IMG/VR virus record: IMGVR_UViG_3300013947_000003
Coordinates: 1 to 64,000 of that record
Direction: 5' to 3' (one strand)
DNA from: a virus
Length of the DNA: 64,000 nt
Shown here: positions 16,169-56,624 of the stretch, piece after piece
Numbering within the stretch: the stretch's first letter is position 1
How the letters are laid out: the number at the start of each line of letters is the position of its first letter
Position numbers and translations under genes: made by a program
The notes under the pieces: generated by a model
The model's input: only the letters and a program-made list of their open reading frames with translations
Told to the model about the DNA's origin: nothing
The model's database searches: none

Positions 16169-16175
16169 CATTAAG

Positions 16176-33953: not shown

Positions 33954-33958
33954 ATACC

Positions 33959-34360
33959 TTAAAGTTCAACTATAGATTCTAGAGCATCTTCAAACATCTA
34001 TTGTGCTAAATTACCACTAAGATGTGCAGCTTCTTCTGAATAAGGATTAATATCCAAAGCTTCACATAAATGCATTTCTAAATGATTCTTTTCATGTACC
34101 AAAGTGTTTAAAAACTCTGCAATGCTACTAGCTTTATGTATAACAATAATGGTCATGTGATTATCAAAGCTGGAAAAAGTTAATCCTGTATCTAATTCTG
34201 CTTTATCTAAATTTGTTTTTACGGAGTCTATAGTACTCTAATTCTTGCTCATCTAAGAGACCTTTTTAATAATTTCGTTTCTCTACTAAAAATCCAAAAC
34301 ATAATAGATATTTACATCCCAGTTATATTTAGTCACTTTGAATTTTTGGCATAGTCCCAT
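33959..34360 (-). CDS. small HExxH-motif protein (133 aa), possible metallopeptidase
   Basis: Translated by eye. Contains the motif VHEKNHLEMH. The ATG overlaps the upstream TAA (TAATG). It has 5 in-frame TAG codons. Confidence 0.5.
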
Positions 34361-34566
34361 TATTTATATTTCTCTTTAAGTTTCTCTAATTTTTCCTCAA
34401 AGCCTTCTCTATAGCTTCTTCCGCTTCTTTCTCCGTAACCTTCTAGTTCTCTCATGGCTTTTCTATAACCATGTTCACAGCCTTCTTTAAATGCTTTTTC
34501 CAGCATTTCTTCACTGTCACGAGATCTTTCATTATAATCTTCTGTTATATGATAAATTCTTCCCAT
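34360..34566 (-). CDS. small charged hypothetical protein (68 aa)
   Basis: Track ORF with a TAA stop that overlaps the next ATG. Confidence 0.55.
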   Translation of the reverse strand: MGRIYHITEDYNERSRDSEEMLEKAFKEGCEHGYRKAMRELEGYGERSGRSYREGFEEKLEKLKEKYK

Positions 34567-34717
34567 AGTTTAATCAGTTTTAGTTTCTTTTTTAAGAGTG
34601 GCCATTACTTCTTTTATGCTTCCCATTAATTCAGACATTTGTTGTTTTAACGCATTAATCTCTTGCTTCTATTTTTTCTATTCAGCAAACTCAGGATTTA
34701 AAGTCTATAATAAACTT

Positions 34718-35077
34718 TCACAATCCTATACTATTTTTTTTATGGTAGTCTACACTATTTAATATACCCAAACTTTTCTATCTTAATGAGTCCACTTCTG
34801 CATTCATAGCTTCTCTAGAAGTTGTTATTACCAATGCACCATTTACTGTACCCTAATCTGCAACATCTAGATTAGCCGGTAATTTCTATAAAGTAATATT
34901 ATTATCATTTATTTTAACCACAACATCTACAACCATTTCCTACGGATTTATAAAATTAGTTACTGGAAATTTTGGTTGTGGCTGTGATATGCTTACAACT
35001 TGTCCTACTTCTATATAAGGAGACGCCTCTTTATGAAGTATATATATTTGACTATTAGCTCTTAAATTTTGAAACAT
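34718..35077 (-). CDS. hypothetical protein (119 aa)
   Basis: Translated by eye from ATG 35075-35077 to TGA 34718-34720, with 4 in-frame TAG codons. Confidence 0.5.
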
Positions 35078-35089
35078 ATTAATATTTTA

Positions 35090-35512
35090 TTATGCCGTAG
35101 CCGACGTTATTACTAAAGTTAAAGAATCATTAATTGTGTAAGATAATGCACATCCACAATTAATATTAGAACCGTATTGTTCTCTTCCAACATTTGTTAG
35201 AGTTATTGTGGTAGGAACAGTAGTCTACCCCTAAAATGCAACTACATAATTCTCTGTAAATAGTTGTGTATGAGCATTACATCCGCATTTACCATCTTGT
35301 GTAACAACTGTTATTACTACTTTCACAGGAATAAAAACTGTTGTTTCTACCAACCTTGGAGTTCCAGTAGTGTAAACTACTGAAACCTACGGTTGAATAG
35401 TGGAATCAATACAAAATGGCCTACATAACTTCTCTTTATAAGTCGCCATAAAAGACAACTGATTAGCAACAGGGGCTGTTGCTAATCCTACAGGTGATAT
35501 TGTTACTGCCAT
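35090..35512 (-). CDS. hypothetical protein (140 aa)
   Basis: Translated by eye from ATG 35510-35512 to TAA 35090-35092, with 3 in-frame TAG codons. Confidence 0.5.
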
Positions 35513-35524
35513 AATGATTAATTA

Positions 35525-36430
35525 TTAACAATTACAACTACCTGTAGTATAAGGATATCCATAATTATTGCAGCCACATCCATAAGGGTTTGGAACTACA
35601 TAAGCAGGAGAGGGAGAAGGTCTAACCTAACTTACTATATTAGCAGTCTATGCCTACTGAGAAGCTGCCAAAGCAAGTTGACTATTTTCCTATCTAAGAG
35701 CATCAATCTTATTCTGCATCTCTCTCATTTCTAACTAACAGAACTTATCATTAATAAGAGTAGTTTGCGCGGCTATAGCATTCTTTAAATCACAAGTCTA
35801 CTATGCAGTAGCATATGCTGTAGAAGAAAATCCTCTCTCAACAGAACTATTTACAAAATTTATAGCATTCTATAAAGTGTTAGTTTGATTTACATTAGAT
35901 AACTGATTCTCATAATTAGTTTTAGTTATAGAATCCTAAATACTGCAGCAACATTGTGCTAATTGACTGCCTAACTGACAATTTCCGCTCTAGATAGAAT
36001 TGATAATCTGTTGGCCTGTCATACCAACCTGACTACCCACAGTTTGTATAGAGGATTGTACTTGACCTATAGCAGTTTGAAGAGTATTTACATCACAATT
36101 TAAAGTAGTGGCAAGTTGACTTAAAGCCTAACCATTACCATTAATAGCCTGTAAAAGAACTTCTCTACCAAAATCATTATTCAATTGGTTAGGTATACCA
36201 TCAGCATTTCCACCAAACATACCATTACCTCTACCTCCCCAAAGCCAGAACATTATGATTACCCAAATCCACCACATGCCTCCACCTCCCCAAGCATCTT
36301 GGTTTTTAGAAGCATTTGTAAGCATTGCCATAAGATTAGGATCAATACCTTTATTCTGCATTAGACTAGCAATAAGAGCAGAGGAATCAAAGCCCTTATC
36401 TGCTGTATCAAAAACATAAGTTTTTTCCAT
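35525..36430 (-). CDS. hypothetical membrane-anchored, Cys-rich protein (301 aa)
   Basis: Track ORF 36128-36430 has a W/G-rich hydrophobic segment (WWIWVIIMFWLWGG). It continues through about 11 TAG codons to TAA 35525-35527, ending ...YGCGCNNYGYPYTTGSCNC. Confidence 0.55.
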
Positions 36431-36471
36431 ATATAAATAATAAAGAAGTTAATAAATAAGTGATCACTGCA

Positions 36472-36479
36472 CAAAGGTA
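36472..36479 (-). promoter_or_regulatory. -7 box TACCTTTG
   Basis: Lies 42 nt upstream of ATG 36430 and downstream of the 36518-36552 hairpin. Confidence 0.4.
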
Positions 36480-36517
36480 TTATTTATATGTCAAAATTAA
36501 CAACAATGCTAAACAAC

Positions 36518-36552
36518 AAAGGCAATACTCTGTATTATAGAATATTGCCTTT
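36518..36552 (-). terminator. hairpin terminator after the endolysin gene
   Basis: An AAAGGCAATA..TATTGCCTTT stem is followed by GTTGTTT on the minus strand, 11 nt after the TAA at 36563. Confidence 0.55.
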
Positions 36553-36562
36553 AGTATTGTTT

Positions 36563-36973
36563 TTATAAATCCTTATACTCAGTTTTTGCATCAAAAGAAG
36601 GGCACGCTTTATTGGCATATTCTCTATGCCCGTGTATAGTAGCGTTAGGATATTTCTTTCTAAGATCTTTTATAAGTTTTATTAAAGAAGCTTTTTGAGC
36701 AGCTGTTCGAGTGTCTTTAGGTGTTTTACCGTCTTTCGCTACGCCTCCTATATAACATACTCCTATAGAATATGCATTATGACCTGAGCAATGGGCTCCT
36801 ATTCTTTCTATTGGTCTACCTGTATGTATAGAGCCATCTCTATAAACAACATAATGGTAACCAATATCACTAAATCCTCTTTGTTTATGCCACTACCTTA
36901 TTTGATTTACTGTATAATCCTTTCCTTCAGGAGTAGCAGAACAGTGTATTATAATTTCATTTATTATTCTCAT
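36563..36973 (-). CDS. N-acetylmuramoyl-L-alanine amidase (PGRP / T7-lysozyme-type endolysin), 136 aa
   Basis: Translated by eye: IIHCSATPEG..WHKQRGFSDIGYHYVVYRDGSIHTGRP..IGAHCSGHN.YSIGVCYIGG. It has one in-frame TAG (IRQWH). Confidence 0.8.
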
Positions 36974-37259
36974 ATTTATTTATATATAAATCTAAATCCT
37001 TTTTATACCAAAATAATTCTTTAAAGCCCGCTTGTTTCATTCCTTTAGGCAATCTTCCTTGTCTAACATAATTATCAAAAGAAGCCCTACTGATATTTAA
37101 ATATTGGTAAGCCTAATATTTACTCAGTCTTTCTTGTTTATCAGAAAGAACTCTTAAAGATTTTAGTATTTGTTCTTCTTCCTCTTTTGTTAAATCACAA
37201 CTTCCTTTATCTATATTTTCTATAAAACCTTTTAATAAATGTCGGATTATTTTTAACAT
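36957..37259 (-). CDS. small HTH (excisionase/AlpA-like) DNA-binding protein (100 aa)
   Basis: Contains the motif YQYLNISRASFDNYVRQGRLPKG and one TAG. It overlaps both neighbouring genes. The start codon is uncertain. Confidence 0.45.
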
Positions 37260-37620
37260 AACTATATAATAAATAAAATAACATAATTCCTGTAATTATA
37301 ATATGAAAAACAAATAGATGAAAATCCGAAATATTAATTCCTATATGATAATCAATTAAGTTTAAAGTTTCTATAACAAATATATACCATAAAAATATTT
37401 TATGATATGTACAAAATCTAAAAACAATTGCAGATACATATATAAATACCCAGGGTAAAAAAGACATTCCACCAAGACAACTTAACAGCCATGTATCTAT
37501 ATCAAAATAAGCAAATAAAGTGTTGAAGAAATAACATAAAGCTCCTAATATTGGAATTAGCTTTAGTAATTTCAACAACACTTTATATAAAATCTTATTT
37601 AAGTTTTCCTCCTTTAGCAT
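37207..37620 (-). CDS. multi-pass membrane protein (holin candidate)
   Basis: Track ORF with about 4 hydrophobic segments, next to the endolysin and spanin-like genes. Confidence 0.5.
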   Translation of the reverse strand: MLKEENLNKILYKVLLKLLKLIPILGALCYFFNTLFAYFDIDTWLLSCLGGMSFLPWVFIYVSAIVFRFCTYHKIFLWYIFVIETLNLIDYHIGINISDFHLFVFHIIITGIMLFYLLYSYVKNNPTFIKRFYRKYR

Positions 37621-37658
37621 ACTATCCTTTCTTTAGTCCTGCTTTCGGAGTTAGAGGC

Positions 37659-38051
37659 TTAGGCCTTCTTGTCTTTGTTTTTGTTTTTGCCATTTTCATC
37701 TTTTTTAGGCTAGCTCATAATTCTAAGCTAGCAGGTTAAATCAGTACATATTTGAGTAGTTAACTATATTACCGCAGTTTTAAGATCTTCAAGTTCTCTC
37801 TTTAAATTATCATTATCCTATCTTAAAGTGACAATTTCAATACGAAGTTCCTTGTTTTCCTATAGTGCAGTATCCAATCTTTCTTTATTGTCGTTACTTA
37901 ACTTTTCATAAAACTCTAAAGATGCTTCCATATTACTTATTACTGAATTATCTACTTCACTATTATATTTCTTTCTTGCTAAAAACCATGATAACCAGCT
38001 TCCTGCTGTAGTAGAAACTACTCCAATTACTGCTATAATAATTTCAGTCAT
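37659..38051 (-). CDS. N-terminal TM plus coiled-coil protein (holin or i-spanin-like, 130 aa)
   Basis: Track ORF 37860-38051 (TM segment IIIAVIGVVSTTAGSWLSWFLA) continues through TAG codons to TAA 37659-37661. Confidence 0.5.
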
Positions 38052-38055
38052 CGGA

Positions 38056-38442
38056 TTAAGATTTTTTTAGTTTATACCATGTTATTGCGGCACCTCCTAT
38101 TATAAATGCAGCACCTAACCACATTAATAACTTTTGATACCATTTAATTTTATTAACTTCTTTCACTTCAGTTTTTGTTATATATATCGGCGTTTCAATA
38201 GAGTCTTTCTGTATCATAGTATCAGTATGATTTAGATATTTATAAATGTACTTATACTTATATAAGTACAAGGTATCACCATTTACAAATCTGTCAATAC
38301 TATCATGAACATATATACTGTCTATTTTTAATGTATTTATATATTCTGTTTTTACTTTTTCTATAGGAACTTCTTTTTCTATTATTTTAGTAGACCCACA
38401 AGCAACTAGAAAAACAAGAATAATTATTAATAAATATCTCAT
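38056..38442 (-). CDS. lipoprotein with C-terminal TM: unimolecular-spanin-like
   Basis: Has a lipobox LVAC|GS at the N-terminus and a C-terminal TM segment LLMWLGAAFIIGGAAITW. Confidence 0.55.
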   Translation of the reverse strand: MRYLLIIILVFLVACGSTKIIEKEVPIEKVKTEYINTLKIDSIYVHDSIDRFVNGDTLYLYKYKYIYKYLNHTDTMIQKDSIETPIYITKTEVKEVNKIKWYQKLLMWLGAAFIIGGAAITWYKLKKS

Positions 38443-40004
38443 AGTTTGTTTTTTGTATACATTATCTAATGTAACGTTCCATTATATACATTAGGTTCCA
38501 CAATAATTATATTGTCTTTATGGGTTACCATACTTCCGTTGCCTCCAAGGGGACTGCTAGACTTTCCTGTAGGAATTCCTTTAGATATGTTTTTAAATGT
38601 CATTTTAGATGCTTTAGTATTAAACATTGCAGTATTTAAGTTTTCACACTCAAAATCTATTGTACCTAAATAAACAGATCCGTCTTCATTTCCATTTTCA
38701 AAACATCTATTATAATAACAACACACCAGCTTTATACTTTGTTCATCAGACAAATAATTTTTAACATAAGTTATTCTAGGTAATGCTCCCTATAAATGTC
38801 CCCCTGCAGTATTTATTTTAATAGGAACTAAAGGTTGATCTGCATTACCATTAATACCGTCAGTAATAGTACTGCATAAAGGATCTATAATATTTCCTCC
38901 AAATCCTAACCAAAACAATTTATTATACTAGTTTCCGACATTACCCACTGCACGTATTACATAAAATATATGTCCAGATTCTGTGATTGTAAAATCAGGT
39001 TCAGAAACTAAAGTAGTATTACCATGTAATATAGAGGGCGTAATTGTAGCATCCCATTCTACTCCTGAAAAATCAGCTAGTTTCATTCCATCAAAAGTCT
39101 CAAAATCTTCAGTATGAACCAAATATATAGATCTCCAACAACCATCTGCAGAAAAATTTAATCTGTTTCTTGCGTAAGCCATAAAGTAATACAGCTTATT
39201 AAATTTGATTACTTTATTAGTGGGTATAACATGCATGTTATTGATAACAAGGTCTAAATCTTTAGATGTCCAAGTTTTACCACCATCTATAGATTTATAT
39301 AATGTTGTTATTTGGTCGCTTGTAAACTTTAGAGATATTATAACTTCGTTAAGCTCTTTATCTGTAAAATTAACACAGACGCAGTCTCCAAACATACTTG
39401 CAGCAGCATTGGGAACCTCATTATCATATATAAGTTCTTCAGTAGTATTTTCGTATATTTTATAAACTCGGTCTCTATAATTAGTTATAGAGTATAAAGT
39501 AGCTTTTTCCTGTCTTTCAAGTCTATACAAATACTGTTTATCATAGTATTGGTCTTCTCCTACTATATATTCCCAAGAAGGACTCCAAGGAGTTGTCTAT
39601 TTAGTAGCATCAACTTTATTAAAATACTTTATATCTTCTTCAATCTTTTCATTAATACTATCAATATCTTCTGCTTGTTTTTCAACTTTAGAAGTAAGAG
39701 CCTTAATAGCAGTGTTTAGAGTATTTAATTTATTATCAGTATTTGTTTTCCAAACATTTAATTCCTATATGGCTGCTTTATTGTCTGAAATGTCTTTTTC
39801 AATAGTTTGAAAATGAAAAATAGTATCTTGAAGGATATTATCCTTAATTGTGCTAAGATTAACTCTTACATTTTTAGCATTCTACACTATTACTATAGAG
39901 TCCTCATCTTTAATAGAACTTTTTAAATCAAACTCTAAATCTTTAACTCCTTTAGAATTTAACCATTTTTCTATTTTCTCTAATTCTAATCTTCCTAAAA
40001 ACAT
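38439..40004 (-). CDS. tail fibre / receptor-binding protein with coiled-coil and BNR (Asp-box) motif (521 aa)
   Basis: Track ORFs 38928-39530 and 38466-38753 share one frame. Contains an Asp-box SIDGGKTW. The TAG at 38466 reads through to TGA 38439-38441, which overlaps the next ATG (CTATGAGA). Confidence 0.65.
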
Positions 40005-40717
40005 TATTCTACAGCTATTAATTGTATTTTTATTTTTCGACTACCATTATTAATAATACTACTAGTATCAGTCATTTTGGGAATGGTTACTTGCAAATAT
40101 GCTTTAGTTCCAGCAGTTGCAACTCCTTCTGAGTTTTTCCAACTTGAAGTAATAACATCGCTTTTATATACGCGTTCTCTGTCCTAAGTAAGTACATCCC
40201 CCACTTCATGTTTACACCATATTACTATAGGTTCTAAAAAATAGTCTTGTATTCCTATATAAGGAGCACTATTCCAATAAATACTATACCCATTAAATTC
40301 TTTTATATCAGACTAGTAATCATACAAACCATTATTCAACATAGGTACCGCCACAGTTTTAGAACTTCCTACTTTTAGGTCTTTAAAAAAGTTTCTAATA
40401 CCAAGAGTAAATACAGGCATTGTTAGTTGATCATATTTAGAAGCATAACTAGCACAATCTCTTTTTGATATATAATTCGCATTAATACCTTTTACCTCAG
40501 TTTCTAAAGATGATACACTATACACAAAGTCATCCATATTTCCTACAGGGGACCAGCTACCGTCTATATAATGGTAGATTATATCATTATCAGAATGTAA
40601 CTCATAAGATTCTTCATCCTAATCGCTTTTTATTTTCTGTTTACCTGCTTTTATCCAAAGTACATTTGTTTGTTTGGGAGGATTGGCAGAATATATAATA
40701 TTTTCGTACTTTATCAT
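40004..40717 (-). CDS. tail fibre-like protein (237 aa)
   Basis: The N-terminus MIKYENIIYSANPPKQTNVLWIKAGK is paralogous to the upstream gene. The TAA at 40004-40006 overlaps the next ATG. Confidence 0.6.
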
Positions 40718-40719
40718 AA

Positions 40720-41502
40720 TTAATCTATTAAGGTTACTATTACTTTATTCAAACTTGCATTTGCTTCAATTTCAGTCACACTATAAAACTCTACCTTAAT
40801 CCTTTTTTGTATATGTTCTACACTACTACCAACATCAATAGTAGTTTCTGTAATATATGTAGGTCTTAATTCCTAACTATAATTAGTTTTAAAAGCAAAG
40901 TTTGTAGAAGTAAAATCTAACTTACAAGGAACTCCTGTTTGTGTATTACCACTTAAAGTATTTGTTATGATTATATATGGAACATGATAATAATAAATTG
41001 CTTTTCCCACAGCTTCCCATTTATTATTGCTGGTAATAGTGGGTGTTATAGCAATATCACGTGTGATGCTAACTGTATCCATAGAAAGTTCATGAAGGTT
41101 ATCAATCTAAATTACAGGTATAGCCAAAGAAGACTCAGTGCCTTTATAAGTAGTAAAGTTGTCACTAAGCACATTAACACTGTTATTAAGGGTAGTAACG
41201 GTATTATTTACAGTAGTAACAGTATTATTTACAGAAGTAATAGACTCTTTAATATTGTCCGTCTCACTTTGAAGAGTTACAATATCTTCTTTTATACCTG
41301 ATATATAGTCAGCCGTATCATCCGCATTATTTACAGACCTCCAATTTCCGTCTACAAATTGATACAGTTTACTCCCAGGATATTCACTTTTATCCTCTTC
41401 AGGATTTTGTAAAGATTCAACGTATTTACCTGCTTTTATCCACAAAACATTATGTTCTTCAGGAGCTTTTTTTGAATATACTATATCTTTATATTTTATC
41501 AT
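40720..41502 (-). CDS. tail fibre-like protein (260 aa)
   Basis: Track ORFs 41107-41502 and 40873-41082 are in the same frame and joined by TAG. It begins MIKYKDIVYSKKAPEEHNVLWIKAGK. The stop is TAA 40720-40722. Confidence 0.6.
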
Positions 41503-43904
41503 TTACTATTAGTATTAGTAGGTTTATTTATTTGCTTTAATTTAAGAGCCTCATCGGCTTTATTTTTACGTTTAGTTTCAGCTAATTTATCTTTTTCTAA
41601 TTCCTATTTAGAATTAAACTATCTAATTTTTTCGTCAAGTTCAGCTTTTGCTTGTTCCGGATCTTCTTTATAGAAATTCTAATTAGCCATAGATTCAGCA
41701 TTTATTTCTGCAACAAGTATTCTGGTTTCATTGTCTCTTTGATTTATGGAATCTTTAAGTTCCATTTCTGCCTATTTTTGCTGCGCTTCCTGCTGTATTT
41801 GTTGCTGTGCCAATTCTTGTTGCTGTTGCTATTGTTGCTATGCTCTCTATAACATGTCTTCTTCATTCTTTTGGACCATTCTTTGTTTCTCGGCTAATGA
41901 AGTACTATTGTATAATTTCATAATAGTAGAGAAGTTAAGTGTTTGATTCTATAGGGCTGCCTATGCTAGCATATCTAACTTTTGTTTAAGCTCCTGCATA
42001 CCATCACTATTATCAACAACTAAACCATAGTCAGCTTCAGCAAACTCATCACCATCAATTTCAGTAACTTTCATAGTATTATCTGCTAATAAATACTAGA
42101 ACTTCTTACTTCTTCCTTTAAGTGCAATTTTTGCAGTTTCTAAAAAGCATTCTAAAGCTCTTCTTTTAACATCGTCATGGACCATAAACAGCCATTCAGT
42201 AATATGAGAAGACTGTAAAGTAGCCCTTTCCACACCACCAACAGTTTCTCTATTACTAATCTAGCCTTCTCTTTGTCTAGAAATGCCTGCAACATCAGAC
42301 ATTTCCTACTTAATATACTCCAATAGATTTACATATTGCTATATGGTATTACCAACATCTGCGTTAAATGCTCCCTGTTGTGCATTATTTAAAGCCCCTG
42401 AAAGCTTTCCCATAGCTGCTCCTGAATTGCCTTCTTTAAAACTATCAGAAACAACAATACCGGAAGTTTTAGCAAAATACATCCACTTTTCTATATCCCA
42501 TCCAGTAGGAACTTTGGCTAAATCTAGATTAATTAGAACACCCCAATTTCTAGCAAGTAGTTTATTAAGTCTGTCGTGTATAACATCATATAAGTAATTA
42601 TATGATTTCATCTTATCAACTAAAGAAAATGGTTTTGAATCATTAAGATTATAAACAGATCCTACAATACCAAAATGGCATCTTGAAGGATTGGAGAGTC
42701 TATTATACTAAACTACCCTAGGACGCATATTTACATAAATATCTGTGCCTATTTTAGTTCCTTCCCAAGCTTCATTTATATAAAAAACTGTTTCTTCCTC
42801 ACCCTCTTCTGTTTTTGTTATATAAGTTTCCGGATAAAAATTAAATACTTCTTCACCTGTTTCTGGATCATAAGATTTAACTTTTTTTATTTTTCTTCTA
42901 GATTTCCAATAAACTCTAAGAACCCTTATATTACCATTCATATCAAAAGGAAGAAGCGAATCATTAACTCCATCAAGTTCTCCTGTAATATTAGAAAAAA
43001 AATCAGTTTGGGAATTAAATGTTTCACCTAACATAGAACCATTTATAAATCCATATCTTTCATCTATATTATCCATAGAATCAGTAGATCCTTGCCCCAA
43101 ATTGTCAGGCATTTCTTCTATATACTCTCTGTCCTTTTCTGACAATACATCATAATAAGTATCTATTATCTTCCCGGGGCTCCAATAATCCTCAAGTATT
43201 ATAATATCTGCATCTTCTAATCTATTAGAATATCCAGATCTAAATGCGCGTATTTTTAAAGGGTTTATTCTTTCAATGACGGGTTCTCCACCAACAATAT
43301 CACATTGATATATTTCTTCACCAACAGTCATTCCGTCCATAAATCCTTGGTTAAATATCAAAGGCATGTTAAGTTCCTTAACATAGTGGTGTAATAATGA
43401 ATTGGCCCTTATTTCTCTCATATCTTGCCATTCTAGAGAAAAATAATCTCCCATCTATTGAATGCGTTGATTAAACTCTTCCTCAGAAGAGGAAGTATCC
43501 TAAACAGCTTTTTGAAGTTCCTAATATATTTGATCCCTTTTATTGTTTTCTATTTCAGATATAGAATTAGGATTTGTAATAACAACTCTATAATCAAATA
43601 CTCTGGCAGATTCTTCGCCTCTCAGAACATCTAGTTTGCTATTCATGATAGGATAGTGTTGTATTTTATCAGGAATAAATCCAGCCTGAAGATGCTCGGG
43701 ATTTAATATCATCATAAGGTCACTCATATGAAGTTTACCATTAATTAAATCATAATTAATCTTCTTATGAATAACACTGTTCCTAACAGGTGAATAGTTG
43801 AAAAATGTCTTAGAGTCTGCCCAATCACAATGAAGTTTACGCCATTTTTTATTCTTTTTATTAAATGGCAACTATTGTGGGGGTAATTTAACAAAATTAC
43901 TCAT
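41499..43904 (-). CDS. portal protein (801 aa)
   Basis: Three track ORFs share one frame. Its size and its position after TerL fit a portal. It has a C-terminal poly-Q tract made of TAG, CAA and CAG (41772-41855). The TGA overlaps the next ATG (ATGA). Confidence 0.75.
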
Positions 43905-43929
43905 ATATCTTTCAACTTTAAATTTTATA

Positions 43930-43937
43930 CAAAGGTA
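43930..43937 (-). promoter_or_regulatory. -7 box TACCTTTG
   Basis: Lies 26 nt upstream of the portal ATG at 43904. Confidence 0.45.
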
Positions 43938-43983
43938 TCATATAATAAACAAATACACAACATAATAATTATTTTATTAACTA

Positions 43984-46221
43984 TTATAAAGTATTAAGTT
44001 TAAACTGTCTATAATTTTTTTCAAAGAATGGGTCTATCTCAAGTCCTTTAGGTTTTACCTAAGCTCTTCGCATATCCCCTTGATATAATATCATCTTTTC
44101 TTCTCTAAAGAGCATTAACTAAACTAATGACATCAATCTATCAACATTTATATCAGGGTTAAATAATATAAGTTCTTTTAGTAAAGCTCTATTTTTAATA
44201 AATGATAAATTAGGCACAGTATAAGAAACTTCATGACCATTCTATTCTTCATTTATAGTAACAGGCTTTAATAACCAATCTCTAATTAAAGTTAGTCCAA
44301 AGTTTTTAATAGGTACTGTTGCCTAAACTCCCTTACTAGAATTACCAAAATTAGAGGACTTTATCAACTATTTATTCCTTAAATATTCAGGTGTATCAGC
44401 CAACATGTACAAACTATTAGTTCTACTAAAGTAAGAAAATGTGTTCTTTTTATTACTTTCATAGAGTAATTGACAATTATAAAATAAACATATCTTTCTA
44501 GCTATCTCATTTAAATCATCTACAAACATAGGTCTGCCTGTGTACTCTGCAACTATTCTATCAGTCCATAGGTCCATTACAAACAAAGAACCTAAAGACA
44601 TTGTATTAGATTCATCATTTTCATAATTATCTAGAGATGCTATATACCTATCCTATGGAATCTTACCTTGTACTTCCTAAGGCATTTCAAATATTTCTAA
44701 AGCTCCGGTACTTTTATTATCCTTTAATGGGAAGTCTCTAATAGGTTTATCATAACTAGGCTAGAACTCTACTTCATGTTTTTTATTAAATACAAGATTT
44801 CCTATATAAGTATCATCGTAGAAATTAGGGTTATTATCAATTTCATTTAATCTAGCTGTTAATTCTGTTATAGGAAATATATTGCCTTTAGCTCTCTGAA
44901 TAGCTTCCTACGGTGTTATAGGAATTTCAGCAATACGTTTAGTAATAGCATTAATATTAGTTGAATTATATTTAACAAGATACCTATCTTTTAGTATTTG
45001 TACTAATGCCTTAATAACATCGCTATTACCATCTTTATCATAACAATCAGCCCTATTTAAATATCCAGGAAAAAAGTATGTAAACTATTTCCTTCCCTAT
45101 CCCTCTTTATCATAAATATTATCAATCCCTAAAACATTGTAGCCTTTAGGATTATACATAAGTTCCTGCATAGAACTAAAGTCAGAGTCATTATCACCTG
45201 CTGTACCCCAAGCAGCAATAATTCCCCACACACTATCACCATCTTCTACAGAAGGCCTTAATACCTACCATAGATTTAATAACCTAGGGAACGTGCCACT
45301 CTCCTCGATTATATATAAAACTCCTCTAGAACCTCTAAGTTTAGATTCATCATCTTTAGAAGTAATACCCATAACACTATTTTCTGTACCCATTCTAACA
45401 CCTGTTTCAACATCTAAATAGCCCATAGTCCATTGCATATTCTAAAGACTAGATGTTAATCTTCTAGAGGGAAATTGAGTATTACTAGCACAGAAATCTA
45501 TATAATACTAAAACATGTCTAGAATCTAATTAGCCCCTTGTATATATTTTCTTTCAGATGCAGTTACGACACACTATACTTTCTTATTTACTTCGTAACC
45601 TTCTCCTAATATAAATCTTTTAGCTAACAAAGAAGCACCACAAAAAGACTTACCACAACCACGTCTTGATAGTTCCATATAATGATGTCCTCGATCTCTA
45701 CACTATTGTAAAAAATGAAATTTATAATAGTGCCCTTCCCAAAATAATGGCATACCTACAGAACGTATTGTTTTACCTTTTGCATCTTTTTTTATAAGCT
45801 ACATAGGGCAGTAGTTTAAAAAGAAATACATATCACCGGTAATCCACTCACCATCAGATGGCCTTACATACCCTTCATAGCATCTTCTAATTTCCTCTCT
45901 AATCCATTTACCAAATTCACTATTAGGATTAGCATTAGGTTTTAAATCTGTTAGTCTTCCTGTTTTCTAAAAATGTATTGCTGTGGGTCTAAAATAATCC
46001 GTATCTTCTAATATGTGGGGTTTTGTTATGTCAATAATGATTTTACCTTCTTCATCTCTAGGAAGATCTTTAGCATAGGGTCTATCAGCAGAAATTAGCT
46101 TTTTTATATAAGGAACATTATTAATATAATCAAAGAACTGCTCCTTAACTTCTTCATTCATAGAATCAAGCAGTTCCTAAGTTATACTAGTCTAGCATTT
46201 ATTTAATCGAAAGTTCTCCAT
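43984..46221 (-). CDS. terL: terminase large subunit (745 aa)
   Basis: Track ORFs 45967-46161 and 44368-44601 share one frame. Contains a Walker A-like motif RRGCGKSF. It has about 20 in-frame TAG codons. The start is ATG 46221 (46161 is an alternative) and the stop is TAA 43984-43986. Confidence 0.8.
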
Positions 46222-46483
46222 TTAATACCAGTTTTATTATTTCTTGTATTATATATAAATCAAACTTTTTCTAAAAACTCTCTAAGGAAGTGGTTGATAC
46301 TTTATCTGTTTTAGTAAACCTTTCTATAAGCTCTCCTTTACTTTTAGTTATTTCATACAACTCCCCTGTGAAAGTCTTAATAATCTTCATTGTAGAATGT
46401 GTCTCCATAGTTTTTCTAACAACAAGATTTTTACCAACTGCTTTCCCTATAGTATTTATTACTTCATTAAAGGTTAAGTCCAT
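46199..46483 (-). CDS. small hypothetical protein (94 aa)
   Basis: The track ORF continues through the TAG at 46271 to TAA 46199-46201 and overlaps the terL start. Confidence 0.5.
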
Positions 46484-47015
46484 CTTCAAATAACTTTTTT
46501 TCGCCCGAACCTCTCATTTTTCCTGAACTAACCATTTCAGTGGTAATGGCTTTTTCTGCATCTGCAAGGTCCTTAACTAATTGTGGAATCATTTTAATAG
46601 TAGAGGTTATACTATTTATAGTATAAATAGGCTTTCCTTTATCATCTGAGGCATTAAGATCAACATCTCTAAGGAATGTTCTAACCTTATCTACTGCAAT
46701 ACGAGTATCCTCAAGAAGAAGCGCAGAGGGGGATTTAAAGGACTCATAAAACTACATAGCTTCTTGAACTTGTTTATCAGGTTTCCAATCCTTTAATCCC
46801 TCTCCCTCTATAACTGCTTTTGCCCTTTCTTTTGGGTCAATAATATATTGATAATCACTTCTAGGATCGCACATAAAATAAATATAAGCCAATTCCTAAA
46901 GTGCTTTATTTTTACCATTAGTTTTATCTCTAGACCATATTAATTTGAATGGCTTAAGCATTAGTGCTTCTTCCGAGATAACAACTTTATATGCATCATA
47001 TTTAAACAACTTCAT
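46467..47015 (-). CDS. hypothetical protein (182 aa), small-terminase candidate by position only
   Basis: Translated by eye with 2 in-frame TAG codons. It is the first gene after the terminator at 47024-47052. Confidence 0.5.
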
Positions 47016-47023
47016 AAATAATA

Positions 47024-47052
47024 AATTAAAAAAGCCTCTCAACTGAGAGGCT
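47024..47052 (-). terminator. rho-independent terminator
   Basis: An AGCCTCTC-AGTT-GAGAGGCT hairpin is followed by TTTTTAATT on the minus strand, directly after the TAA at 47060. Confidence 0.8.
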
Positions 47053-47059
47053 TTGTCCT

Positions 47060-47470
47060 TTAAAGAATAATGTCTTTATTAGGATGGATAATTGAAGTAT
47101 CTTCAGTTTCCTCCCATTCTTCTACTACAAATTCTATATCTCTGTCCTACAGTAGTAAACAGGGCTTATTATCAATTACAACAATATCAAATCTATATTC
47201 AATAACCGGATTGTCTGATATAATACCGTCTTTAAGACTGCCGTCTTTATGCTTTTTGATTGCAAATCTGTTTGGGTTTATTGAGACAAGATCTCCTACT
47301 TTAATGCCTCTAACAGAATCTCCAACAGCTAATACTTTTTGATACTCTTTTACAGTACCTGCTTTTTTTGTAACATCTATAATATTTCCTATTTTACCAT
47401 CTTCCTCATATACATCCATAGTTGTAACAAGGGCAGTAAACATAGGTTTAATTTTTTTTACTATCAACAT
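47060..47470 (-). CDS. GroES/gp31-like co-chaperonin (136 aa with one TAG readthrough)
   Basis: Shows a GroES-like pattern: IKPMFTALVTT...KEYQKVLAVGDSVRGIKVGDLV. The track ORF stops at a TAG, and 29 further codons then end at a TAA directly before a strong terminator. Confidence 0.55.
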
Positions 47471-49095: not shown

Positions 49096-49168
49096 TCGCC
49101 CCACTCAGAGTCGAACTGAGATCTTCAGATTTAGAGTCTGTAGTAATAAACCGTTATACTATAGGGCA
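49096..49168 (-). tRNA. suppressor tRNA, anticodon CUA (reads UAG)
   Basis: Folded by hand. Acceptor is UGCCCUA / UGGGGCG and the T arm is CUCAG-UUCGACU-CUGAG. The anticodon stem is CAGA / UCUG with loop CUCUAAA, which puts C-U-A at positions 34-36. Total length is 73 nt. Confidence 0.8.
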
Positions 49169-49421: not shown

Positions 49422-49486
49422 CGGTTCCTAGTAGATTCGAACTACTATCTTCCATTTCAGGAGTAATACCATTATACTAAGGAACC
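49422..49486 (-). pseudogene. truncated tRNA-like element (65 nt)
   Basis: It has a perfect acceptor (GGUUCCU / AGGAACC) and T arm (AGUAG-UUCGAAU-CUACU). Only about 31 nt lie between them, and no canonical 5-bp/7-nt anticodon arm can be drawn. Confidence 0.4.
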
Positions 49487-49890: not shown

Positions 49891-49941
49891 ATATATATTA
49901 AAATTAAAGGGTATAGGGTTAAAGCCCCATACCCTTATATA

Positions 49942-51763: not shown

Positions 51764-51951
51764 TTTTATATTTGTAAGGATGTGGAGGGTAAAATAATAA
51801 AAATTTTTATACTTATAGGAATGAGGTATTTTAATTTTTTATATCTGTAAAATGGAGTATTCTAAGTTTATAAAAATAAAAGTTTTTTATTTGTAAAGAT
51901 GGGGGCATTTTTAAATTTTTTATATATTTATATAAACGAGGTATTATTACC
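51764..51951 (+). repeat. five degenerate tandem repeats (32-48 bp) with core TTTTTATA-yTTrTAr-GrATG-rGG-TA
   Basis: The units start near 51764, 51804, 51835, 51883 and 51916. The array ends exactly at the left copy of the 13-bp direct repeat. Confidence 0.6.
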
Positions 51952-51964
51952 CACTCCTCCCCAC
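51952..51964 (+). repeat. left copy of the 13-bp direct repeat CACTCCTCCCCAC
   Basis: Identical to 58045-58057. It lies at the AT-to-GC compositional transition. Confidence 0.85.
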
Positions 51965-52130
51965 CCCTGGCGAGCCAGGGGGATATCCCCCGGGGGGCTA
52001 TATATCACAGTAGTCCCAACATGGCCCATACAGCCGAACATTGCTGCTATGGCCCAATTAATGCTTGCTAGTGTTCACTCAACTTCAGGAGTGAGGGAGC
52101 TGACCTATTCAGCCTTATAATTAACATGTT

Positions 52131-52141
52131 TCACTTAAAAA
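52131..52141 (+). promoter_or_regulatory. conserved upstream element TCACTTAAAAA
   Basis: Member of the WCACTTAAAAC motif family (six copies, all on the plus strand). Confidence 0.4.
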
Positions 52142-52414
52142 CCATATAGGATATGAAAACAAAGCATTTCCTTATGGGGGCAAAGCAATAATTGCCTCAG
52201 CATTATTCTTTGCTGGGGCAATTGCATATGTCTTCATCATTTGGACATCCTCCAAAGATGAGGACTAATGCCCCATGTTGGGTTGCCAACACCCAACGTA
52301 TGTAGATAAAATTGGCCAACATTATTCATTCTCCCCATCTCCTCTTTTTATTATTAACCCAAACCTTCACACTGGGAATATAGTCTATCTAGACTGGTTA
52401 AAGTGTATAAAAAA

Positions 52415-52891
52415 ATGCGATATATGTGGACGATAGAAAATGGGTACGGCCTGCTGCAAAAATGCAGCAATGCTGCAACCCTAGAAGGGGTCTTCACAGA
52501 AATTTTAGAAGAGATCCGGGAGCACTTTATAGTGTGCTCTATATGGACATCGTTTAGCGACAGGTATCCTATAAGGATACCTTTCACGGCAACTTCACTC
52601 CTCGGCGAATACTTCGCCGGGGAGGTGGTATATGATAAGGCGGAAAACCGCCTCATCATATATGAGGATGAATATTCTGCCCCCTCTAAAGAGGTGGCAA
52701 GACGGTGGTGCGAGGGGCCCACCAAACCCAAAGAGTTGCTCTTATATTGGAGCAACTCTCCATTTAGGGCAGATGTGCAGAGGGCCTACAGCCACACAGC
52801 TCTCTGTGTGGCATTCCTGGCCACGGGGGAAGTGGCCTCCTCATACGAGGAGGCGTGGAATATTGTTAGAGAGGCTGCTGAGCAGTCTTAA
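52415..52891 (+). CDS. island ORF 1, hypothetical (158 aa)
   Basis: Track ORF 52403-52891, trimmed to the first ATG. It has a TAA stop followed by a hairpin (52935-52960). Confidence 0.55.
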   Translation: MRYMWTIENGYGLLQKCSNAATLEGVFTEILEEIREHFIVCSIWTSFSDRYPIRIPFTATSLLGEYFAGEVVYDKAENRLIIYEDEYSAPSKEVARRWCEGPTKPKELLLYWSNSPFRADVQRAYSHTALCVAFLATGEVASSYEEAWNIVREAAEQS

Positions 52892-53212
52892 CAATATCCC
52901 CAGGATGAGCTCAAGAGCGATTGAATAAAAGGCCCTACAAAGCCTTTTACTTCACTCTTGAGTTCACCAAAGGTGGGTGGCCTGTTGGGTTTGTAGGCAC
53001 CCCAACATTAGACAAAAACCTACAGCACACTGCTCCCTCAGTAATATTCTATGCCCTCCATTAATTGGTTGTAGCCCTCAGTTTGCATATTGTATTATAT
53101 ATATGTAAACTTCTCTTTAGTTATGCATAGTTTCAGGTCATTCTTATCCATAGAATGGCTTGTTACTAATGCTGTATGTCTCGTTGATTTATTAACTCTT
53201 AACCTCAAAGAT

Positions 53213-53521
53213 ATGGAGTTACATAATTATACTCCTCACACAATCTCTTTGAATAATGGCACACAGTTCCCCTCTGAAGGGTTGGCTCGTGTGGCCAATA
53301 CATTCACAGAGTTTGTGGAAGGTATCTGTGAGGTACACTTTGGAGACATCCAAGGACTTCCTGAGCCTCAGGAAGGTGTCCTGTATATAGTGTCTGCACT
53401 TGTATTGTCTGCAGCTAAGGCTGCTGGCCGTACAGATTGTGTGGCACCTGCGACAGGACATCCTGATTGCATCCGTGATGCAAAAGGATTTATCCTGAGT
53501 GTGCCTGGCTTTGTTCGATAG
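53213..53521 (+). CDS. island ORF 2, hypothetical (102 aa)
   Basis: Track ORF trimmed to ATG 53213 (MELHNYTPHTISL...). It ends at a TAG. Confidence 0.55.
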   Translation: MELHNYTPHTISLNNGTQFPSEGLARVANTFTEFVEGICEVHFGDIQGLPEPQEGVLYIVSALVLSAAKAAGRTDCVAPATGHPDCIRDAKGFILSVPGFVR

Positions 53522-53636
53522 AATAGAGCCTTCACGGAGTTTTCACCTTGCAAAATAATGGGAGTTTTGTAAGGGCTTTCCTTGGCAACAGAATAAAGCC
53601 AGGTTCCCATAATGTTTAATTCATAATATTATAATA

Positions 53637-53882
53637 ATGTTAGCATTGTTACAATATAATGAAAGCGAGGTCTATAGCAGCAGCCTCTTTCTTAACAAAG
53701 AAGAGGCTAAACTGCAATTCGCCAAGCTCAAAGAAGAGTTTGCCAAAGAGGAAGGCAATACCTTCGAAGAACTTGGTGAGGGCCATTTTACATGGTGTTC
53801 TTGGGACAGCCTGGAATTCCAATATGTAAAATTGGTGGACCTCGGTCCCTCCTTAAGGGAATACTTTGGAGTAAACCTTTGA
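53637..53882 (+). CDS. island ORF 3, hypothetical
   Basis: Track ORF with a TGA stop. Confidence 0.5.
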   Translation: MLALLQYNESEVYSSSLFLNKEEAKLQFAKLKEEFAKEEGNTFEELGEGHFTWCSWDSLEFQYVKLVDLGPSLREYFGVNL

Positions 53883-54085
53883 GAACTTTGGGTTTATGCT
53901 TTCCCAAAGTATAGATAAAAAAGCACAATATTAAAAAACTTATATCCCTATGAGTTTCTTTTATTAAAAGTTTTAGATTAGGGACCTTGTTTTAATCTCG
54001 GTTTCACACCACTATATTATATAGTGTGTTATAGTGGTGGCTTTATTAAAGTATATCACACACTACCACCAAAACATATACATCT

Positions 54086-54232
54086 ATGGAAACATTTGAT
54101 GTTATGTGCCTCCTAACAGTATTGCTTATAATAGCAATTCTGGGAGGCATTGTGTTCCTCCTAGAGGCCACCCCACTGTGGAAGAAGTTTCAAAACTTCA
54201 TTCTCCACATATGGGGTGGAGAGGAAGACTAA
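54086..54232 (+). CDS. island small TM peptide (48 aa)
   Basis: Reads METFDVMCLLTVLLIIAILGGIVFLLEATPLWKKF.... It is below the track length cutoff and has one hydrophobic helix. Confidence 0.35.
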   Translation: METFDVMCLLTVLLIIAILGGIVFLLEATPLWKKFQNFILHIWGGEED

Positions 54233-54348
54233 CTCACTCTCCTCTCTCCTCACCTCTACTCCTCATTCACTTAATTCTAACCAAAACCTCCCAGGTAGTA
54301 AGGGTGTATTCCCAAGCTTATAAAGCTGTTAAGACCTGTTCAAAAATC

Positions 54349-54738
54349 ATGACAAAATTTAATTTTGCTTACAATCGTCTTCGTGAAGCCTACATGGCAT
54401 TCACACACAGCCGTTCGTACAACTCCTTTCAGGCATGGTATAATGAGTGCCACTACATAGATTGGGTGTGGGGGTATTATGGGGGAATTTTCGAAAGGGC
54501 GGACTACTATAGTAGTCCGCAAAAAGAAAGAGCGCAGAGGGAGTGGGAGAGCTTCCTCCTAAGGACCGCTAAGATATTTGATATCTTAGCGGACTGCACA
54601 GACTGGCACGAATCTGTGCCGTACTTCTATAAGAACGGAGACCCAGAGGCGACTCTCCGTCAATTCTTCCCAGAACTGGAAGAAGCAGACAGAATAAAGA
54701 GGGAATCCTCTTTAGGGAAGGACTACTTCCCATTCTAA
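54349..54738 (+). CDS. island ORF 4, hypothetical (129 aa)
   Basis: Track ORF 54106-54738 trimmed to ATG 54349 (MTKFNFAYNRL...). The upstream extension overlaps the TM peptide and looks non-coding. Confidence 0.5.
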   Translation: MTKFNFAYNRLREAYMAFTHSRSYNSFQAWYNECHYIDWVWGYYGGIFERADYYSSPQKERAQREWESFLLRTAKIFDILADCTDWHESVPYFYKNGDPEATLRQFFPELEEADRIKRESSLGKDYFPF

Positions 54739-54799
54739 TACTCCTAGAAAAAAACTAGTACCCCTAGAGTTTCTACATGAGTAGTTTTAAATAGGGGTT

Positions 54800-54810
54800 T
54801 CACTTAAATC
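54800..54810 (+). promoter_or_regulatory. conserved upstream element TCACTTAAATC
   Basis: Ends 10 nt before ATG 54821. Confidence 0.45.
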
Positions 54811-54820
54811 CTATAAAACA

Positions 54821-55108
54821 ATGAAAAAAGGATTTTATGAGTTCAAAGAAGAACTCCTTCAGCAAATAGATGCTGAAATAGAAAATGCACCTCAACAGTC
54901 AATAACTGTTGAGGAATTTGAGGAATACCTCAACATCCACAATAAAGTAACTAAGTGTGTTGACACCATAGGGCTACTAAAGCTAGCCCAAACCTTTTAC
55001 AGGACACGCTTGTTTAGTGTTTGTAGTACCCCGGACTCCCCAACAACGTCTTCCATAGAGTACTATCTGGGGAAGCTCCAAGAAGTAAGGAGGGAGCTTT
55101 ATGGATGA
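54821..55108 (+). CDS. island ORF 5, hypothetical
   Basis: Track ORF. Its TGA overlaps the next ATG (ATGGATGA). Confidence 0.55.
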   Translation: MKKGFYEFKEELLQQIDAEIENAPQQSITVEEFEEYLNIHNKVTKCVDTIGLLKLAQTFYRTRLFSVCSTPDSPTTSSIEYYLGKLQEVRRELYG

Positions 55109-55364
55109 GAGGCTCTATGAGTTATTGTTGGATTTGACAATCCACATGGCTCAAAGGAGATTCGATCAAAGGATCTCCAAAAGAGATCTCTCTACATGGG
55201 ATCTCTATGAGATATATGAGGAGCTAGACCTCCTCTATAACATGAAACGCACTGAATGGCCTACATTAGTGCGCCTTTCAAAAAAGTACATTGTGTACTT
55301 ATTAAACCAAGAAGGGACAGATAAACTGTTCTTTAAGTCCCTCCTGCAAAACCTAAAAGTATGA
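55101..55364 (+). CDS. island ORF 6, hypothetical
   Basis: Track ORF, translationally coupled on both sides. Confidence 0.55.
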   Translation: MDERLYELLLDLTIHMAQRRFDQRISKRDLSTWDLYEIYEELDLLYNMKRTEWPTLVRLSKKYIVYLLNQEGTDKLFFKSLLQNLKV

Positions 55365-55603
55365 GCGAATACTGGGAATGTCTCCAAAAGGATATCAAGG
55401 AGACCAAAGCAGCTGTGGAGGACCTCAACAAACATCTTGAGAAAATCCGCCGTCTAAAAAGAGCTACTCCACAAGAACACGTGGAGAAACAAGAGGAGTT
55501 AAAACAAATAGAGCGAGAGCTCTCTAATGACCTAGACTACTATGAGTTGAAACTCCAAGACCTCACAAAAGAAGAGTGTATGTACGAGTACTTCTGCTCT
55601 TAA
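55361..55603 (+). CDS. island ORF 7, coiled-coil hypothetical
   Basis: Track ORF whose start forms an ATGA overlap. Confidence 0.55.
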   Translation: MSEYWECLQKDIKETKAAVEDLNKHLEKIRRLKRATPQEHVEKQEELKQIERELSNDLDYYELKLQDLTKEECMYEYFCS

Positions 55604-55699
55604 AATCTGAGCAATTCACTTGGTGGGCTTAAATAGTATGGGCCCACCAAGGCTTTGTATAAGTCAACACATACTACCACATCTAAAACTTATAATACA

Positions 55700-55903
55700 A
55701 TGGAAAAGTTTTCAGATGACCCTATTTGGGTAACAAAAGATGGAGTTAAACTCCATCTTTCTGAGATGTCAACCAGGCATCTCATTAACAGTTTAAACCT
55801 TCTAAGGATTAACTGTGGGTGGAGAGAGCGCTTTGTAGTTCCCATGCTTCGGGAACTTAAAAGGCGTAACATGTTATTTGACTGGTGGTTCTATAATCTC
55901 TAG
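55700..55903 (+). CDS. island ORF 8, hypothetical (67 aa)
   Basis: Track ORF trimmed to ATG 55700 (MEKFSDDPIWVTKDG...). It ends at a TAG. Confidence 0.5.
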   Translation: MEKFSDDPIWVTKDGVKLHLSEMSTRHLINSLNLLRINCGWRERFVVPMLRELKRRNMLFDWWFYNL

Positions 55904-55954
55904 TTAGCATAGAACTAATACCTTCCTAAGTTCTCAAGTTCTTAAAGGGAAGGT

Positions 55955-55965
55955 TCACTTAAAAC
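55955..55965 (+). promoter_or_regulatory. conserved upstream element TCACTTAAAAC
   Basis: Ends 11 nt before ATG 55977. Confidence 0.45.
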
Positions 55966-55976
55966 GCATAACAACA

Positions 55977-56261
55977 ATGGAAAACAAAACAAATGGAAGG
56001 TGTTTAGCTATCATAGATAGCATCACCTATAATCTTAGGATGCTAGTAGCCACACCGAAACATCCTAATGGAGGTGTATTCTATGTGTGGGCAGCAATAC
56101 AAGCCCACTATCCATATGAGGTACACTTCATTACAGAGTACCAAGGGATGTACCTTGTAGATCCTCGGGTACTCTGCAAAGCAGATAGGAGTACCATAGA
56201 TAATATGGAACTAGAGGCTAAAAGCCTTAGAATCTTAGTATACGAACAAAAAATAAAATAA
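55977..56261 (+). CDS. island ORF 9, hypothetical
   Basis: Track ORF with a TAA stop. Confidence 0.55.
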   Translation: MENKTNGRCLAIIDSITYNLRMLVATPKHPNGGVFYVWAAIQAHYPYEVHFITEYQGMYLVDPRVLCKADRSTIDNMELEAKSLRILVYEQKIK

Positions 56262-56319
56262 TATATAACACTCTAACTAAAGCTTGTAGGCTGCTCTAGT
56301 GTGGAACCTTCAAATAATT

Positions 56320-56613
56320 ATGAACATACAGCGTTCCTTCACACTTCTTATCTACTCCATCCTGGCAAATAAGCCCCACACACTCTTTGCAGATAGCTTA
56401 TATCCTGTTAGAGGGATGGCTTTTAAACAAGGAGGCCACCTCTATACCTCAAAGATACATCTGGGGTATATGTTCTACCTAAGCACCCCATACTCAAATG
56501 GTAGGTGCTTTGACCTGCTTGTAATAAGGCAGGGAGAGCAGGTTGATGAACACTGGGGAATAGTGCTTCCCGTAGACACTTTAAAATCTATTATCAATTA
56601 CCTAAAATACTAA
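56320..56613 (+). CDS. island ORF 10, hypothetical
   Basis: Track ORF 56299-56613 trimmed to the first ATG. Confidence 0.45.
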   Translation: MNIQRSFTLLIYSILANKPHTLFADSLYPVRGMAFKQGGHLYTSKIHLGYMFYLSTPYSNGRCFDLLVIRQGEQVDEHWGIVLPVDTLKSIINYLKY

Positions 56614-56624
56614 CCACCAAAACA

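Follow-up and report, generated by a model that had tools for sequence, protein, structure and literature searches.

Known suppressor systems and the phage under study

The closest described systems are the code-15 suppressor tRNAs of crAss-like phages in the Beta/Steigviridae, Delta and Zeta groups (PMC7886860; 10.1101/2021.08.26.457843; PMC9523058), in which TAG is read as Gln, recoding is mostly confined to late genes, an early block stays compatible with the standard code and the tRNA(CUA) gene lies ahead of the structural genes. That TAG stands for Q was shown by metaproteomics in two crAss-like phages (PMC9523058), and the published model holds that early genes are translated in the host code before the phage tRNA permits the production of late proteins (Yutin 2021 PMC7886860; Borges 2021 10.1101/2021.08.26.457843). 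In Jade phages, the 'code change module' described by Borges et al. combines a suppressor tRNA, an aaRS and a release factor; there too the suppressor lies just upstream of recoded late genes, in a region that stays compatible with the standard code. E. coli supE is also a tRNA-Gln-derived amber suppressor with a weak 1-72 pair that is charged by GlnRS despite A36, but it is a chromosomal point mutant with G73 that acts at low efficiency and competes with RF1, whereas the phage gene studied here must support hundreds of sense UAGs.

The DNA analyzed here, referred to as the window, comprises 64,000 nucleotides (positions 1 to 64,000 of IMG/VR record IMGVR_UViG_3300013947_000003) and comes from a crAss-like phage of the same order. 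By megablast its terL and portal genes matched cr116_1, cr128_1 and Kolpuevirus, with ~74% DNA identity to the nearest GenBank phage. Against cr116_1 (Pamirivirus faecium, Steigviridae) the amino acid identity was 71% for TerL and 66% for portal, and the gene layout was collinear across ~40 genes, which places the phage in the Crassvirales (Steigviridae-like). Phage cr116_1 is annotated with long uninterrupted genes and therefore uses the standard code; at the position equivalent to that of the suppressor it carries a 13-tRNA array that includes tRNA-Gln(UUG). The window does not differ in principle from the code-15 systems and is a clear instance of a mechanism already well documented in crAss-like phages. 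What sets it apart is its distance from known phages and a suppressor allele clearly different from that of its closest IMG/VR relative (IMGVR_UViG_3300045988_177920, hereafter L033; TerL 95%).

Our main reading, to which we give a probability of roughly 0.88, is that the gene encodes a functional elongator tRNA(CUA), of Bacteroidales-type tRNA-Gln descent, which would be charged with Gln by the host GlnRS and decode UAG as Gln for the late genes. The gene lies in a small regulator and tRNA cluster at 47.4-49.7 kb, at the head of the minus-strand structural block and 2.9 kb upstream of terL (Table 1). An earlier reading made from the letters of the window (the sequence-only reading) had put it in a middle-gene region upstream of TAG-rich late genes; its position ahead of those genes held good, and the 'middle-gene' label is not one that sequence can demonstrate. 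A terminator-like hairpin on the upstream side of the cluster suggests that the tRNA cluster may start a new transcription unit, apart from the two upstream genes. Promoter scans gave no excess over expectation, either for sigma-70 promoters (31 found vs 27.8 expected from shuffles) or for the Bacteroides-type motif TTTG-N17-23-TANNTTTG (7 found vs 4.2 expected). Neither a release factor nor an aaRS, amidotransferase, tRNA-modifying enzyme or other recognizable code-change factor was identified by PHROG and Pfam among 26 ORFs scanned beside the tRNA and within the early block, ~30 kb of the genome lying outside the window; this differs from the Jade module, with its aaRS and release factor.

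Table 1. Positions of the features discussed, in window coordinates.
Feature	Position	Strand	Basis or remark
1211-aa gene, end of large-protein module	279..3914	+	17 in-frame TAG
Late structural/packaging/tail block, TAG-dependent	3966..47470	-	ORF and codon analysis
portal	41499-43904	-	18 in-frame TAG
terL	43984-46221	-	21 in-frame TAG
Three overlapping ORFs of 58-60 codons	48899-49081, 48720-48902, 48547-48723	-	ORF reading; one TAG each
tRNA-Sup(CUA), amber suppressor	49096..49168	-	ARAGORN; Rfam RF00005, 52.4 bits; family covariation
tRNA-like gene between tRNA-Arg and suppressor, anticodon arm reduced to CC-UGAAAU-GG	49422..49486	-	Rfam, 45.6 bits
tRNA-Arg(UCU), same small cluster	49566/49567-49638	-	ARAGORN; Rfam, 59.9 bits
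Terminator-like hairpin between 190-aa gene (49942-50514) and tRNA cluster	49907..49936	-	Consensus scan only
Early/replication block, standard-code compatible	51899..63737	+	No TAG inside genes
tRNA-Leu(UAA)	58199..58285	+	ARAGORN; Rfam
tRNA-Met(CAU)	59244..59318	+	ARAGORN; Rfam
tRNA-like gene just after tRNA-Met, 5-nt anticodon loop UAGUA	59364-59431	+	Rfam, 44.9 bits; not called by ARAGORN

Three observations on the wider genome are recorded here. At window 52000-58000 the GC content was 0.39-0.43, compared with ~0.30 elsewhere, and the small plus-strand ORFs there lack TAG, matches in Pfam and homologues in cr116_1; this early region may have been acquired or may evolve fast. The major capsid protein (MCP) gene was apparently split (28723-31786, minus strand), with pieces at 31454-31786 and 28723-29379 that match the cr116_1 MCP and ORFs 29489-30265 and 30747-31355 in the ~2 kb between them. 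The cr116_1 MCP is also split, at a different site, by an ORF related to window 28022-28648, and the differing split sites suggest mobile introns. Lastly, the terL match extended over ~3.2 kb vs 2.2 kb in five relatives (L028, L029, L031, L033 and L035), which implies a ~1 kb terL insertion (intron, intein or homing endonuclease) in those five that is absent from the window.

Fold and charging identity of the suppressor tRNA

ARAGORN called a minus-strand tRNA at 49095-49168 with anticodon cta, one of four tRNAs in total and the only tRNA(CUA) that it found in the window. The RF00005 model matched over its full length (model positions 1-71; E = 2e-8; gathering score 29) and its alignment put the anticodon C34-U35-A36 at window 49134-49132, in the 7-nt loop CUCUAAA with U33. 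The acceptor stem, UGCCCUA/UGGGGCG, contains the pairs U1.G72 and U6.G67 and is followed by discriminator A73; the anticodon stem has 5 bp, the variable region 4 nt, the D loop AACGGUUUA carries G18 and G19, UUCGACU forms the T loop and no CCA is encoded. This cloverleaf is also the MFE fold, with two stem mismatches, U13.U22 in the D stem and A27.A43 in the anticodon stem. Across an alignment of 18 suppressors and 4 tRNA-Gln, 95.9% of cells were paired and 17 of the 21 pairs showed changes on both sides (compensatory); none of 500 shuffles matched the observed pairing and covariation, and slid registers came nowhere close. By model score, by its anticodon loop, G18G19 and T-loop motif and by its compensatory stems, the suppressor is a canonical elongator tRNA. 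The sequence-only reading had drawn the same 73-nt minus-strand cloverleaf, with CUA in CUCUAAA and a UUCGA T loop, and both programs agreed with it; the covariance model accepted the fold in that register, and direct reading of the sequence gave the same U1, U1.G72 pair and A73.

Database searches with the gene itself returned little: an exact IMG/VR search with the anticodon arm and variable region gave three matches, none of them a tRNA, and BLAST against GenBank phages gave weak partial matches alone (Lak-A2 at 77%; tRNA-Trp T arms).

ARAGORN labeled the gene tRNA-Pyl because of its CUA anticodon and on no other ground. As hallmarks of tRNA-Pyl we took a 6-bp anticodon stem, a 3-nt variable loop, a short D loop without G18G19, the lack of T-Psi-C, and pylS/pylBCD nearby. 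The 5-bp anticodon stem, 4-nt variable region, G18G19 and UUCGA T loop led us to reject this identity on structure, and no pyl genes were present among the 26 ORFs scanned beside the tRNA and in the early block.

The charging identity had been held to be unreadable from the sequence, a verdict that came from the use of E. coli, with its G73, as the reference. When identity elements were compared with those of host tRNA-Gln, this view largely did not hold. The host sample consisted of 120 bacterial loci with a tRNA-Gln bearing the D arm seen in phage tRNA-Gln, and among 52 tRNA-Gln from Bacteroidota-titled loci, 51 had U1-A72 together with A73; G73 occurred solely outside that phylum. A73 is thereby explained by the Bacteroidales tRNA-Gln link. 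The acceptor of Prevotella tRNA-Gln(UUG), UGUCCUA/UGGGACA with A73, is nearly copied by the suppressor, in which just two things have changed: the 3-70 pair is C-G and not U-A, and position 72 is G and not A. Common to the suppressor and the Prevotella-type tRNA are U1, G2-C71, C4-G69, C5-G68, the U6.G67 wobble, A7-U66, U8, G10, A73 and the lack of an encoded CCA; elsewhere the suppressor has CUA not UUG and A37 and A38 not G37 and U38. U1.G72 was absent from all 120 sampled host tRNA-Gln loci. A second tRNA(CUA) is present on each of the large contigs L048 and L055; in its acceptor and D arm it is identical to Prevotella tRNA-Gln, and it looks like a possible intermediate form.

Recognition by GlnRS relies on U35, on the acceptor stem and 10-25, and on the discriminator (PMC9976931). 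At these identity positions the suppressor has a weak 1-72 pair with U1, G2-C71 (found in 8/8 phage tRNA-Gln), G10 and A73 as in host tRNA-Gln; the fixed G10 of the host sample is no more than a consequence of the search pattern, which demanded it. Its anticodon keeps U35 and has A36 in place of G36, as does every amber suppressor. G36 is a GlnRS determinant in E. coli, and E. coli supE shows that A36 is tolerated. The run A36-A37-A38 is the target motif of MiaA, and A37 of the suppressor would probably carry i6A. Whole-sequence similarity to 165 phage tRNAs did not single out Gln for the window copy (Thr 0.72, Lys 0.70, Arg 0.70), while for other suppressor family members Gln was often first or second. 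Those members share the D arm GUGUAAUGGUAGCAC with Prevotella-type tRNA-Gln, whereas the D arm of the window copy has diverged and is unlike that of host tRNA-Gln. GlnRS is present in Bacteroidetes, most of which lack GatCAB (PMC3927822), and direct charging by GlnRS would therefore be expected. From the identity positions and the protein alignments described below, the charging identity appears largely readable as Gln.

TAG as a sense codon in the late genes

Reading TAG as sense lengthened the longest ORF of the window from 397 to 2686 aa and yielded ORFs of 2686, 1589 and 1304 codons; TGA as sense had no such effect. Under the standard code, ORFs of at least 100 aa sum to ~32 kb, with fragments in place of intact terL, portal and giant-protein genes. 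The late genes (the minus-strand block together with the plus-strand 1211-aa gene) contained 323 in-frame TAG in 14,855 codons, 81 of them in a single 2682-aa ORF, and TAG made up 43.5% of CAA+CAG+TAG, being the commonest Gln-type codon there. Their own stops were TAA (29/38) or TGA (9/38) and never TAG. No TAG occurred in the 2,615 codons of the 17 early-block genes, and recoding is restricted to the late block. Four early-block ORFs (window 53521, 55903, 57083 and 60820, plus strand) stop at TAG under the standard code and have a TAA 3-17 codons further on; these endings fit a true TAG stop early on and harmless short extensions after suppression begins. No difference was found between the bases that follow in-frame TAG and those that follow CAA/CAG (chi-square p = 0.08), giving no sign of a selected readthrough context.

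The sequence-only reading also had the short genes that flank the tRNA carrying one TAG each. This was found for the three small downstream ORFs, which are probably, from their position, the first users of the suppressor; in L033 two of their TAGs are kept and the third, in the second ORF after the tRNA, is CAG. It did not apply to the upstream ORF 49173-49472, whose TAG sits inside a tRNA-like element; translation of this gene probably starts beyond that TAG, at 49403, which would leave it without any TAG. Of two tRNAs described as neighbors that match the codon usage, tRNA-Arg(UCU) and tRNA-Leu(UAA), both are real, and AGA accounts for 73% of Arg codons and TTA for 49% of Leu codons in the late genes, but tRNA-Leu lies 9 kb off on the other strand.

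Among the 42 IMG/VR loci with a TerL relative that we then compared, six had in-frame TAG in terL or portal and none had in-frame TGA or TAA. A tRNA(CUA) was present upstream of terL in four of the six recoded loci, the other two being on contigs with <3 kb of upstream sequence, and in 0/36 standard-code loci, many of which carry tRNA-Gln(UUG) instead. The tRNA(CUA) strictly co-occurs with TAG recoding among the TerL relatives examined. Furthermore, TAG as sense raised ORF coverage in all 19 suppressor-bearing loci to which it was applied, while four standard-code controls barely changed.

Under our main reading, the early genes, without internal TAG, would be translated by the unmodified host in the standard code. 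The suppressor would accumulate in the infected cell and be charged with Gln by the host GlnRS, and UAG would then be decoded as Gln, allowing terminase, portal, capsid, tail and giant proteins to be made. Since early genes keep to the standard code and late genes are TAG-rich, late protein output would be gated by suppressor accumulation. Host RF1 would have to be overcome in some way: by our own arithmetic, 95% readthrough per codon over the 81 UAGs of one ORF leaves <2% full-length product.

Yutin et al. (PMC7886860) and the Zeta crAss paper (PMC12386605) have proposed that such a tRNA mainly harms the host through readthrough of host UAG stops, in host and defence proteins, the decoding of phage TAG being secondary or due to another factor; phages with tRNA(CUA) but without recoding have been reported (PMC12386605). 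As the chief role of the tRNA in this phage we consider this unlikely, as 43% of the late Gln-type codons are TAG, which makes a UAG decoder indispensable to the phage, and as within this clade recoded genomes alone carry the tRNA(CUA) (4/4 vs 0/36). The two roles are compatible and not exclusive.

The amino acid at TAG was assessed from protein alignments. Relative to cr116_1, Gln occupied 69 of 213 aligned TAG positions (Gln background 3.8%). For the 39 TAG sites of TerL and portal, aligned with 36 standard-code IMG/VR homologues, Q made up 610 of 1254 residues (49%) and was the majority residue at 25 sites; it was invariant at TerL-10 (23/23), portal-399 (31/31) and portal-652 (30/30). The next commonest residues were E (8.5%) and K (7.7%). 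At the same sites TAG, CAA and CAG interchange in recoded relatives, and from this exchange and the aligned Q we conclude that TAG = Gln.

It is very improbable that a functional tRNA inserts some other residue at UAG (Lys, Glu, Trp or pyrrolysine). LysRS likewise reads U35, E and K follow Q in the alignments, the nearest isotypes of the window copy by whole-sequence similarity (0.70-0.72) are Thr, Lys and Arg, and ARAGORN applied its tRNA-Pyl label. Against this stand the 49% share of Q and its invariance at several sites, the swapping of TAG and CAG between close relatives, a tRNA-Gln-like acceptor with A73, and the missing tRNA-Pyl hallmarks. In addition, there is no long variable arm, so the tRNA is not of Ser, Leu or Tyr type, and A73 is not the G73 of phage Trp, Asn and Asp tRNAs. 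The CUA anticodon, the TAG codons of TerL and portal, their alignment with Gln and the co-occurrence with recoding mark the gene as a code-15 suppressor, and the core of the sequence-only reading, a phage amber suppressor ahead of TAG-rich late genes, was borne out.

The suppressor family and its meaning for crAss-like phages

An acceptor-only search of IMG/VR (TGCCCTAT-N50-62-AGTGGGGCGA) returned 24 loci, seven of which were one protein-coding sequence family matched by chance. The remaining 17 were all tRNAs with anticodon CUA and an invariant acceptor. They lie on contigs of 8-178 kb, some of them fragments, with sizes that span ordinary and Zeta-sized crAss-like genomes.

In L033 the ~1 kb around the tRNA was 90% identical to the window, but identity inside the suppressor was 70% (Fisher p = 4.5e-6 vs flanks) and fell to 53% over the stretch running from the D arm's 3' half up to the variable region. 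Both alleles retain the anticodon loop, the acceptor and the T stem, and the stem changes were compensatory. The D arm, the A27.A43 mismatch and the variable region of the window copy matched alleles on L054 and L065, while its T arm matched L033. Either allele exchange or unusually fast evolution could explain this mosaic allele.

Several tRNA-like genes of aberrant form lie near the tRNAs of the window. The element at 49422-49486 has 6 nt in place of 13 model positions and was not called by ARAGORN. It was 95% identical in L033, compared with 97.5% for the spacer 49487-49566 and 88-90% for the neighboring ORFs. Its acceptor GGUUCCU/AGGAACC with G73 is that of full-length phage tRNA-Asp(GUC) in IMG/VR (L191, L192), and a search for relatives gave full-length tRNA-Asp(GUC) alone, the gap bounds of the pattern excluding short copies; this element is possibly a decayed tRNA. 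Besides the element just after tRNA-Met (Table 1), a candidate was seen by eye at 59064-59183 (plus strand), with acceptor AGGUAUA/UAUACCU, a D arm, a T arm (AUAGG-UUCAAAU-CCUAU) and ~50 nt inserted between CCAUU and AAUGG at the place of the anticodon loop; its MFE fold retains the acceptor stem alone. Aberrant tRNA-like genes also occur beside the suppressor in other recoded loci (L015 57-112, L052 5522-5593, L058 706-776, L061 5946-6018 and L069 1914-1984), one a 56-nt copy without an anticodon arm and others with 6- or 8-nt anticodon loops. None were found in six standard-code relatives (131 kb, 49 tRNA matches). They may be the debris of a shrinking tRNA array, or something functional.

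Two further RNA observations concern other contigs: ARAGORN called a tmRNA in the crAss-like contig L014 (1880-2269, minus strand), and in the 174-kb suppressor-bearing contig L048 Rfam matched a Hatchet ribozyme (81.8 bits) and a tmRNA (47.8 bits) at 13016-13099 and 13597-14158, respectively, on the plus strand.

That the window copy is a decaying, non-functional tRNA, with TAG decoded by something else, for example a suppressor of the host or a phage tRNA that escaped detection, is scarcely credible: its two stem mismatches, its 70% identity to the L033 allele against 90% in the flanks, the truncated tRNA-like genes close by and the detection of suppressor tRNAs in only ~40% of TAG-recoded phages (10.1101/2021.08.26.457843) are outweighed by the compensatory nature of the divergence, the retained anticodon loop, acceptor and T stem, a score well over threshold, the lack of any other tRNA(CUA) in the window, and an acceptor whose invariance across the 17 IMG/VR loci indicates selection.

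Returning to a functional, Gln-inserting suppressor, a broader history can be sketched, which we offer tentatively and think more doubtful than probable. A single suppressor lineage, captured from a Prevotellaceae-type tRNA-Gln, might be present in crAss-like phages whose genomes differ greatly in size (58-178 kb contigs), having fixed a phage-specific acceptor signature, U1.G72 with C3-G70, that all 17 IMG/VR loci share and the 120 host tRNA-Gln loci lack; its D arm and anticodon stem would turn over fast and recombine, its acceptor end would be under selection, and the truncated tRNA-like genes would be functional partners. If so, selection on the acceptor end may boost charging by GlnRS, compensating for A36, or may instead serve escape from a host tRNA-targeting defence. 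The invariant U1.G72 acceptor, the mosaic, fast-diverging allele and the presence nearby of tRNA-like genes whose anticodon arms are truncated may be new.

As the principle is established, a single instance adds little alone, and the value of this one lies in its details: the Bacteroidales tRNA-Gln link, the phage-specific U1.G72 acceptor, and hundreds of UAGs set against host RF1 without an evident phage release factor. Recognizing the suppressor matters in practice, as annotation in the standard code shatters terL, portal and the giant proteins. For the phage, the suppressor would allow it to run a code unlike that of its host, delaying structural and lysis proteins until the switch.
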